DNA of 30,934 nucleotides from a virus. Taxonomy: Duplodnaviria; Heunggongvirae; Uroviricota; Caudoviricetes. Positions 16,705 through 17,940 of the stretch are shown piece after piece. Numbering within the stretch: the first letter of the stretch is position 1; the number at the start of each line of letters is the position of its first letter. The position numbers were made by a program, and so were the translations under genes. The DNA lies in IMG/VR virus record IMGVR_UViG_2526164634_000026, one strand, 5' to 3'. The notes under the pieces are model-generated. The model saw only the letters and a list, made by a program, of their open reading frames with translations. It ran no database searches and was not told the DNA's origin.

Positions 16705-17177
16705 ATGTTATTGTCTTCCTTTTTTTGAATGGTGCGCGTATTTTACATACATGAGTTTGTAATACAAGGTGCGTAATCAATATGATGTTTTATAATTGCG
16801 TGAGACAATTGATTTATTTGTTTTTTATTGCGGTTTTTATTATCTTTTAATGTAACGGTGTTTTTATTAAGTGTGTTTGCGTGGTGTTTTATGTTTTTTA
16901 TAATTTTTATTTTATTAAATTTAAATGCATTAGTAATGGCTATTCTATATAGCAATATAAGAACTGTTACAAAAAAAGGGGGGCAATTACAGGTAGTTAT
17001 GGATGATGAGTGAAACAGATATTGGAGAACCGGGGAATGAATGATGTCTGAGTCTTATATATCAGAACTCCTTCGCTGTCGCTGGGGGCTCCTGTGCTTA
17101 TGTCGTTTCCCCGATTCGGTTTTGAACGATTACCGAATGTTGAAGAATTATGCCAAAATATAGAAAGGATTTACTGC

Positions 17178-17867
17178 ATGAATACCCAATATTTACAGTA
17201 TGTTCGTGAGCAACTTATGGCAGCTACTGCTGACTTGAACGGAGCAACGAAAGGCCAGCTCGAAGCCTGGCAGGAGCATGCACAATTTGATACTGGTACA
17301 TACAAACGAAAGAAGCCGCGCATTCTGGATGTGGTAACTGGCAAGATGATTACGCTGGATAATACGCCGACTTCCGGTAAGCAGTCGTACGCAAAAGGTT
17401 CATCCATTGCTTTGGTCAGCCCGGTTGAATTCTCAACCTCTTCATGGCGCCGCGCGGTTTTGTCTCTCGATGAACATCAGAAAGCATGGTTGCTTTGGTG
17501 TTACAGCGAAAGCGTTCGATGGGGGCATCAGGTCACCATAACGCAATGGGCATGGAGCGAGTTTAAAGATTTGTTAAGTAACAGAAAAATTGCAGGTAAG
17601 ACACTGGATCGCCTGAAGACGTTAATCTGGCTGGCTGCACAGGATGTGAAGAGCGAACTTGCAGGGCGTGAGGCCTATGAATACCAGACACTGGCATCAT
17701 TGGTGGGAGTGACAACAAAAAACTGGTCCGAGACATTTACTGAACGCTGGGTTGCAATGAAGCACATTTTTCTACAGCTTGATAGTGATGCTTTATTGCT
17801 TGTGACGAGAACACGTTCAAAACAAAAGGCAGCATTTTTACAGCAAAATATTGCAAAACTGGATTAA
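17178..17867 (+). CDS. Putative late-gene antiterminator Q (non-lambda, QuuQ/phage-82-like size class); track ORF opens at 17094
   Basis: 229 aa from ATG 17178 with AAAGGA Shine-Dalgarno; sits between the Q remnant and a late-promoter/terminator pair; homology not verified. Confidence 0.4.
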   Translation: MNTQYLQYVREQLMAATADLNGATKGQLEAWQEHAQFDTGTYKRKKPRILDVVTGKMITLDNTPTSGKQSYAKGSSIALVSPVEFSTSSWRRAVLSLDEHQKAWLLWCYSESVRWGHQVTITQWAWSEFKDLLSNRKIAGKTLDRLKTLIWLAAQDVKSELAGREAYEYQTLASLVGVTTKNWSETFTERWVAMKHIFLQLDSDALLLVTRTRSKQKAAFLQQNIAKLD

Positions 17868-17879
17868 AAGCCATATACT
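17851..17879 (+). promoter_or_regulatory. pR'-like late promoter (TTGCAA-17-TATACT)
   Basis: Near-consensus sigma-70 hexamers with 17-bp spacer, overlapping the 3' end of the Q-like gene. Confidence 0.5.
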
Positions 17880-17912
17880 TCATGCAAATTTGGTATGTTG
17901 TAAAAAATGTAT

Positions 17913-17940
17913 AAACCCGCTGCCGAGTGGGTTTTTTTTA
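17913..17940 (+). terminator. tR'-like terminator downstream of the late promoter
   Basis: AAACCC/GGGTTT stem with 10-nt loop followed by a T8 run, about 35 nt from the predicted start. Confidence 0.4.

Follow-up and report, generated by a model that had tools for sequence, protein, structure and literature searches.

Yin et al. 2022 (PMC9388147) distinguish three Q families, of which Q82 (PF06323) was the only one with its structure and mechanism still listed as open in that year. In the late promoter, the QBE sits between the -35 and the -10 (PMC4914094). According to Bird et al. (PMC5001585), the late promoter of phage 82 (82 pR') combines an extended -10-like element with a GCC at +15 to +17 and an AT-rich stretch; the residue at the +25 pause is a U. 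The GCC is needed for a stable pause, and changing it to AAA cut the pause about five-fold. A Q of this type is also present in Escherichia phage 434, whose genome is described in Feiss et al. 2022 (PMC9119081). Its record (GenBank OL657226) annotates an N-terminal fragment of lambda Q, an opposite-strand LpxR moron, a YlcG-like ORF, a 229-aa ORF labelled as 'Q82-like' transcriptional activator/antiterminator and a terminator at the hairpin that follows.

The window, i.e. the whole stretch of 30,934 nucleotides analysed here (IMG/VR record IMGVR_UViG_2526164634_000026), is 100% identical to phage 434 from 17041 to 17940, and the start codon of its 229-aa ORF is exactly the one annotated in OL657226. 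The ORF and the surrounding late switch are a known, annotated feature of phage 434 and of many E. coli prophages. Novelty is the sole point on which the sequence-only reading of this locus has to be corrected, as all that it described is present in the published 434 annotation; the ORF, the promoter hexamers, the hairpin and a 40-codon ORF had all been placed correctly. The features are listed in Table 1.

Table 1. Coordinates of the late switch and of related elements within the window
Feature	Position	Strand	Basis and remarks
Integrase gene	1419-2489	-	
pI	2698-2711	-	Exact TTGC-N6-TTGC
pRE	10682-10695	-	Exact TTGC-N6-TTGC
Lambda-type Q remnant	15530-15619	+	Translation; alignment with lambda and 2B8; N-terminal Q fragment of OL657226
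lpxR-family lipid A deacylase gene, low-G+C moron	15745-16704	-	PF09982, 137 bits
AT-rich spacer between lpxR and the Q module	16705-17026		25-28% G+C at its lowest
YlcG-family small ORF, 40 aa	17041-17163	+	NF033498, PHROG 2705; counterpart of phage 82 orf45
Q82-family late-gene antiterminator, 229 aa	17178-17867	+	PF06323; identity to phage 82 Q
CII-consensus match TTGCAATATTTTGC	17843-17856	-	Putative; GenBank 'paQ'; overlaps the pR' -35
Late promoter pR'	17851-17879	+	Hexamers, conservation; overlaps the last five Q codons and the stop codon
Predicted +1, first A of AAAT	17886	+	7 nt past the -10; register with 82-like prophage L012
Sigma70-dependent pause-inducing element, extended -10-like TGGTATGTT, +6 to +14	17891-17899	+	Conservation, register
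Intrinsic terminator, tR' equivalent, +28 to +54	17913-17940	+	Fold; annotated in OL657226

A homology search against the Q families, proposed in the sequence-only reading as a check, is positive for Q82. The 229-aa protein matches PF06323 with 306.8 bits (cut-off 25) and an E-value of 1e-91, with residues 4-219 covering profile positions 1-216 of 220, and it matches PHROG 304 ('anti-termination protein Q-like') with an E-value of 2e-108. Alignment to phage 82 Q (X92588) is gap-free over the 229 residues of both proteins, 203 of which are identical (89%). The search returned 2,681 homologous clusters, with PF06323 found in all 120 among the matches listed. Since nearly all homologues among these matches have a length of 229 aa, and those that were read start with MNTQYL, the ATG at 17178 is favoured over an upstream GTG at 17094; the stop codon lies at 17865-17867. 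Pfam matches were found neither to PF03589 (lambda Q) nor to PF06530 (Q21). Lambda Q has a Cys-rich zinc-binding motif. The 229-aa protein contains a single Cys, which is not conserved: phage 82 Q has a Ser at this position, so the cysteine would have no conserved role. The earlier statement that the protein is not of the zinc-binding lambda-Q type is borne out by this.

A sequence search of the PDB copy with the Q protein returned chance matches alone (E ≥ 0.12). The AlphaFold2 model, built with 36 close homologues (72-88% identity), is weak, with a mean pLDDT of just 61.8; values exceed 70 only in the helical C-terminal half (residues ~90-210, pLDDT 71-89). Foldseek comparison of this weak model with the PDB gave no match at E ≤ 0.001. 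The best TM-scores among the 50 Foldseek matches listed (0.31-0.39) belong to a chain of an AlpA-loaded complex at an E-value of 3.7 and are not interpretable.

The gene follows the nin genes and precedes the holin/endolysin/spanin cassette, which places it last in the early right operon. Phage 434 is a viable, plaque-forming phage, and its record annotates no Q-type sequence besides the 229-aa ORF and a lambda-type stub of 29 codons; therefore, this ORF is the only candidate for Q, as the sequence-only reading had it. With a probability of about 95%, it encodes a functional Q of the Q82 family, which serves a 434-type prophage as late-gene antiterminator by the standard Q82 mechanism.

For the late promoter, the region downstream of Q was aligned for seven Q82-type phages from three genera (Escherichia, Enterobacter and Klebsiella). 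In the window, pR' consists of a -35 TTGCAA (17851-17856), the 17-nt spacer AACTGGATTAAAAGCCA and a -10 TATACT (17874-17879). The hexamers and the spacer length are as first described, but the term 'near-consensus' was generous: the hexamers match the consensus at 9 of 12 positions, and promoter matches of equal quality occur four times in this AT-rich stretch against 3.4 expected from shuffles, i.e. at chance rate. Since the hexamer match itself is no commoner than in shuffles, the promoter call rests on conservation. Both TTGCAAAA-T-GATT-AA and, about 12 nt past the -10, TG-n-TAT are invariant in all seven aligned phages. The -35 and spacer sequence TTGCAAAACTGGATT(A/G)AA is common to six of the seven, with PPompW deviating at two positions, while a TATAYT-type -10 is kept in five; the most distant relatives, RothC and Kp4856, have CATATT. 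Just beyond the pause motif, around +15, the similarity among the aligned relatives falls, and the Blast similarity of the E. coli relatives (phages and 500-odd E. coli genomes, 80-90% identity class) ends at 17900. The spacer is presumed to be the Q-binding region, by analogy with the QBE.

Because X92588 ends at the Q stop codon, 82 pR' was compared through 82-like prophages, such as L012, which has the gene order of X92588 and a Q that is 94% identical to 82 Q. The only register that reproduces the published landmarks of 82 pR' in L012 puts the +1 at window position 17886, from which a pause is predicted at +25, the T at 17910. We infer the positions of the +1, the pause and the leader from this register together with conservation. 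Like the phage 82 type, 434 has the -35 TTGCAA, a TATAYT-type -10, an AAA start, TGTA at +23 to +26 and, from +6 to +14, the extended -10-like pause element; its spacer agrees with that of 82-like prophages through AACTGGATTAAAA. From the identity of the -35 and of the initial 13 nt of the spacer in 434 and the 82-like prophages, the 434 and 82 Q proteins are predicted to share their specificity. Unlike 82, 434 is A-rich from +15 to +22, where +15 to +17 are GTA and not GCC. The GCC is present in all six other aligned relatives; it is a feature of the 82 pR' site and not of the Q82 protein family. Overall, the conservation of the cis elements and the fit of the register to the published 82 pR' numbering support the pR'-qut-tR' layout that had been proposed for this locus.

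Some additional control at the late promoter can be considered. On the minus strand, the -35 is overlapped by a TTGC-N6-TTGC which might be a CII-activated antisense promoter (a paQ analogue), acting through an anti-Q RNA and through occlusion of the late promoter. The site matches the CII consensus exactly, is labelled paQ in GenBank (OL657226) and has the same strand as the pRE and pI sites of the window, both of which are lambda-identical; moreover, the TTGC repeat is kept in PPompW, PhiR47_2 and the 82-like prophages, with a different N6. Nevertheless, such a promoter is doubtful. The window contains five TTGC-N6-TTGC sites, each of them on the minus strand, where 2.7 would be expected; as 13 of 100 shuffles have at least this many, the excess is not significant. 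At the 13-nt spacing of pRE and pI the -10 would be CCTTTT, which is not credible, and the left TTGC is missing in the Enterobacter and Klebsiella relatives. In addition, the pR' -35 already accounts for the right TTGC, and a Gln codon for the left. The further exact sites, at 4502-4515 and 5386-5399, are probably due to chance.

A wider version of this idea, given similarly little credence, also takes up the GTA. The 434 qut would then be a naturally occurring version of the 82 loading site that can do without the GC-rich element at +15 to +17. Since this element is missing and the terminator stem begins just 3 nt past the predicted pause position, Q may load on a shorter-lived or displaced pause, and the CII site overlapping the pR' -35 could couple the lysis-lysogeny decision to the late promoter by antisense transcription and occlusion.

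Returning to the standard Q82-type switch, its last element is the terminator. Its 9-bp stem spans 17913-17934, with the 3' arm entering a T8 tract (17932-17939), and begins 33 nt past the -10, in agreement with the distance of about 35 nt first given. At -15.8 kcal/mol (z = -3.3), the hairpin folds better than any of 200 shuffles. Unlike the 82-like prophage, 434 has a different hairpin, which starts at +28 as compared to about +52, so that the 434 leader is about 25 nt shorter than that of the 82-like prophage; it is about 20 nt shorter than that of PPompW. Only 46 nt separate the hairpin from the Q stop codon, where it would also act on unmodified early transcripts. One might thus argue that it mainly ends early, pR-derived transcription after Q and that the promoter hexamers, found at chance rate in such an AT-rich stretch, are a chance match. 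However, this is very unlikely, as the hexamers, the spacer and TG-n-TAT are conserved in three genera while the sequence past about +15 is not, and as these elements fall exactly into the register of 82 pR', a promoter characterised by experiment. Besides, an early and a Q-specific role of the terminator are not mutually exclusive.

An Rfam match to STnc240 at 17874-17943, which overlaps promoter and terminator, was rejected: its 28 bits are under the gathering score of 55 and are carried by the terminator and by A/T runs, and STnc240 itself belongs to the Salmonella chromosome, where it lies between yoeI and yeeY. No tRNA genes were found after the terminator in the window; PPompW and RothC have them at this place. 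In phage 2B8, a relative with a lambda-type late promoter, the region homologous to 17914-17940 (2480-2520 of its sequence, L005) has a 4-nt deletion and substitutions that ruin the 3' stem arm (AACCTGCCGCCGAGTAG-TTTTT). The terminator gating the 2B8 late promoter would therefore be located elsewhere or be weak.

For the proposed Q82-type antiterminator, the following course of events can be envisaged. By analogy with lambda, transcription of the Q gene would come from the early rightward operon and cross the lpxR moron in antisense direction. If the biochemistry of phage 82 applies (PMC4914094, PMC5001585, PMC9388147), Q would then bind the DNA in the late-promoter spacer, overlapping its own 3' end. 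RNA polymerase would start around 17886, sigma70 would re-bind TGGTATGTT at +6 to +14, and the complex would pause near +25. Q and NusA would join the paused complex and make it termination-resistant, again as for phage 82. Without Q, transcription would stop at the hairpin-T8 terminator, with a predicted leader of about 52-55 nt. With Q, it would continue past the terminator into the morons for the membrane proteins and the esterase, the lysis cassette and, beyond cos, the structural genes. Counting against this explanation are the GTA in place of GCC, the proximity of the stem to the pause, the shorter leader and the chance-level promoter match. Since phage 434 is viable and the allele is widespread, the GTA and the short leader are evidently tolerated.

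The lambda Q/pR'/qut/tR' system (PF03589) occupies the same genomic position and shares the same logic, with Q loading at a sigma70-dependent promoter-proximal pause and a terminator before the late genes. Unlike lambda Q, the 229-aa protein has no Cys cluster, and no sequence similarity to lambda Q was detected in it. The pause is predicted at +25 in 434 and lies at +16/17 in lambda, while the leader is predicted to be about 54 nt long as compared to 194 nt in lambda. The Q21 family (PF06530), which includes DLP12 QuuD, is a functionally equivalent late switch; Q21, like lambda Q, forms a nozzle at the RNA exit. In the laboratory variant 434B, the DLP12 Q, late promoter and lysis genes replace the 434 segment, with a crossover inside ylcG.

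The lambda-type gene survives in the window only as a 20-codon stub, consistent with the first claim that lambda Q is destroyed: from the ATG at 15530, 20 codons are identical to lambda Q (15530-15589), and the rest of the frame, up to a stop after 29 codons, is unrelated. The closely related phage 2B8 (98.7% identity in the int-exo region, same ninG-ninI genes) carries an intact lambda-type Q and a lambda-like pR' between the same flanks. Its match to the window breaks off after 15597 and resumes at 17914-17935. Since 2B8 has the intact gene and shares both flanks, 15598-17913 is, by this comparison, a cassette that replaces the rest of the lambda-type Q with its pR'/qut, in keeping with the suggested modular swap of the late switch together with the adjacent moron. 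The cassette contains lpxR, the AT-rich spacer, ylcG, the Q82-type Q and pR' through the pause site, and its left part has 25-43% G+C as compared to about 49% in the flanks. Its left boundary lies at codon 21-22 of the lambda-type Q and its right boundary between the pause site and the terminator, which makes the terminator a part of the downstream module.

Within the cassette, homology to phage 82 and other rusA-ylcG-Q phages begins around 17027-17033. The 40-codon ORF noted upstream of Q is a genuine member of the YlcG family (NF033498 at 48 bits, cut-off 30), as also seen in the alignment with phage 82, which likewise has a ylcG-type ORF upstream of a 229-aa Q. Unlike in phage 82, this ORF has 40 codons instead of 46 and does not overlap the Q start, and the gene upstream of it is the opposite-strand lpxR, not rusA. 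In other Q82-type prophages the gene upstream of ylcG is rusA.

Genome counts were made among 5,426 complete E. coli genomes. The 434-type Q with pR' and terminator is present at ≥99% identity in 618 of these, the lpxR-ylcG-Q junction in 620, and the whole NinG-to-terminator block in 431. Among the carriers are O157:H7 EDL933 and strains of O26, O103, O111 and O145; the EHEC prophages keep the 434 order of NinG, NinI, truncated lambda Q, LpxR, YlcG, Q and membrane protein. The lpxR gene itself has annotations in both 434 and E. coli genomes. Of the complete E. coli genomes that carry the 434-type Q allele or lpxR, essentially all have the two linked (618 vs 620); the moron and this Q allele are therefore inherited together, in line with the sequence-only reading.

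The results matter little beyond confirming the annotation. They assign to the Q82 family a late switch found in a classic phage and in about 11% of the complete E. coli genomes, EHEC prophages among them. The clean boundaries illustrate the textbook point that Q and qut travel together, with the terminator and the downstream genes as a separate module. Finally, the GTA-for-GCC difference is a ready-made natural variant for studies of sigma70-dependent pausing.

The copy analysed here differs from phage 434 and the CP-933K-type prophages (E. coli O157:H7, O26, O103, O111 and O145) in being an integrated prophage that adjoins a pectinesterase-family gene and in having its terminase small-subunit gene interrupted by a Mu-like prophage; relative to OL657226, it has small indels. 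Near 15615-15630, for instance, ATTATTTT has an 8-nt extra copy relative to the 434 record. About 1.1 kb at 22451-23547, at the end of the lysis cassette and in the bor/iss region, is unalignable with the matching 850 bp of the phage 434 record. The window is therefore a 434-like prophage and not 434 itself. In the host flank (1-1330), next to the integrase, a 427-aa ORF on the minus strand belongs to the pectinesterase family, as checked with Pfam. This ORF is presumably ybhC, which would fit integration at the lambda attachment site.

At the other end, the 434-like prophage runs beyond cos (position 24120, where the 434 record ends) for another stretch (24121-24510) and into the terminase small-subunit gene, which ends at about 24509-24510, after 64 codons. 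From 24510 to 29280 follows a Mu-like prophage, right end first and in inverted orientation, with 94% identity to Shigella phage SfMu. Its genes include Mom (24589-25326), a DNA invertase (25518-26111) and tail-fibre and assembly genes. The junction between terminase and Mu-like prophage is spanned by no complete E. coli genome in the collection. As its terminase small-subunit gene is cut, the lambdoid prophage is probably defective for packaging. Although such a very probably defective prophage might harbour the Q82-type gene as an inactive relic, with late transcription depending on something else, this can practically be dismissed, as the Q ORF is intact and does not differ from the one in viable phage 434 (100% identity), the lambda-type sequence in the 434 record is cut short, and the 434-type allele is kept at ≥99% identity in hundreds of genomes.

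If the 229-aa protein indeed acts as the Q82-type late antiterminator, the genes behind the terminator would be the first to be affected. Between the terminator and the esterase gene, at 18037-19290, lie three small membrane-protein genes (a 252-aa PHROG 1521 ORF, DUF3927 'TciB' and another), in the position that stx occupies in Stx phages. Because they come first after the terminator, the first late transcripts would express morons without an assigned function. In addition, the sRNA STnc100 has an Rfam match at 19050-19254 on the plus strand that covers its full length but, with 38.7 bits (E = 3e-6), stays under the gathering score of 47. The match ends at a terminator annotated in 434 and lies shortly before the SASA-family esterase gene. 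For O157:H7 EDL933, 11 copies of STnc100 are listed, at least one of which was detected by Northern blot (PMC5331693).
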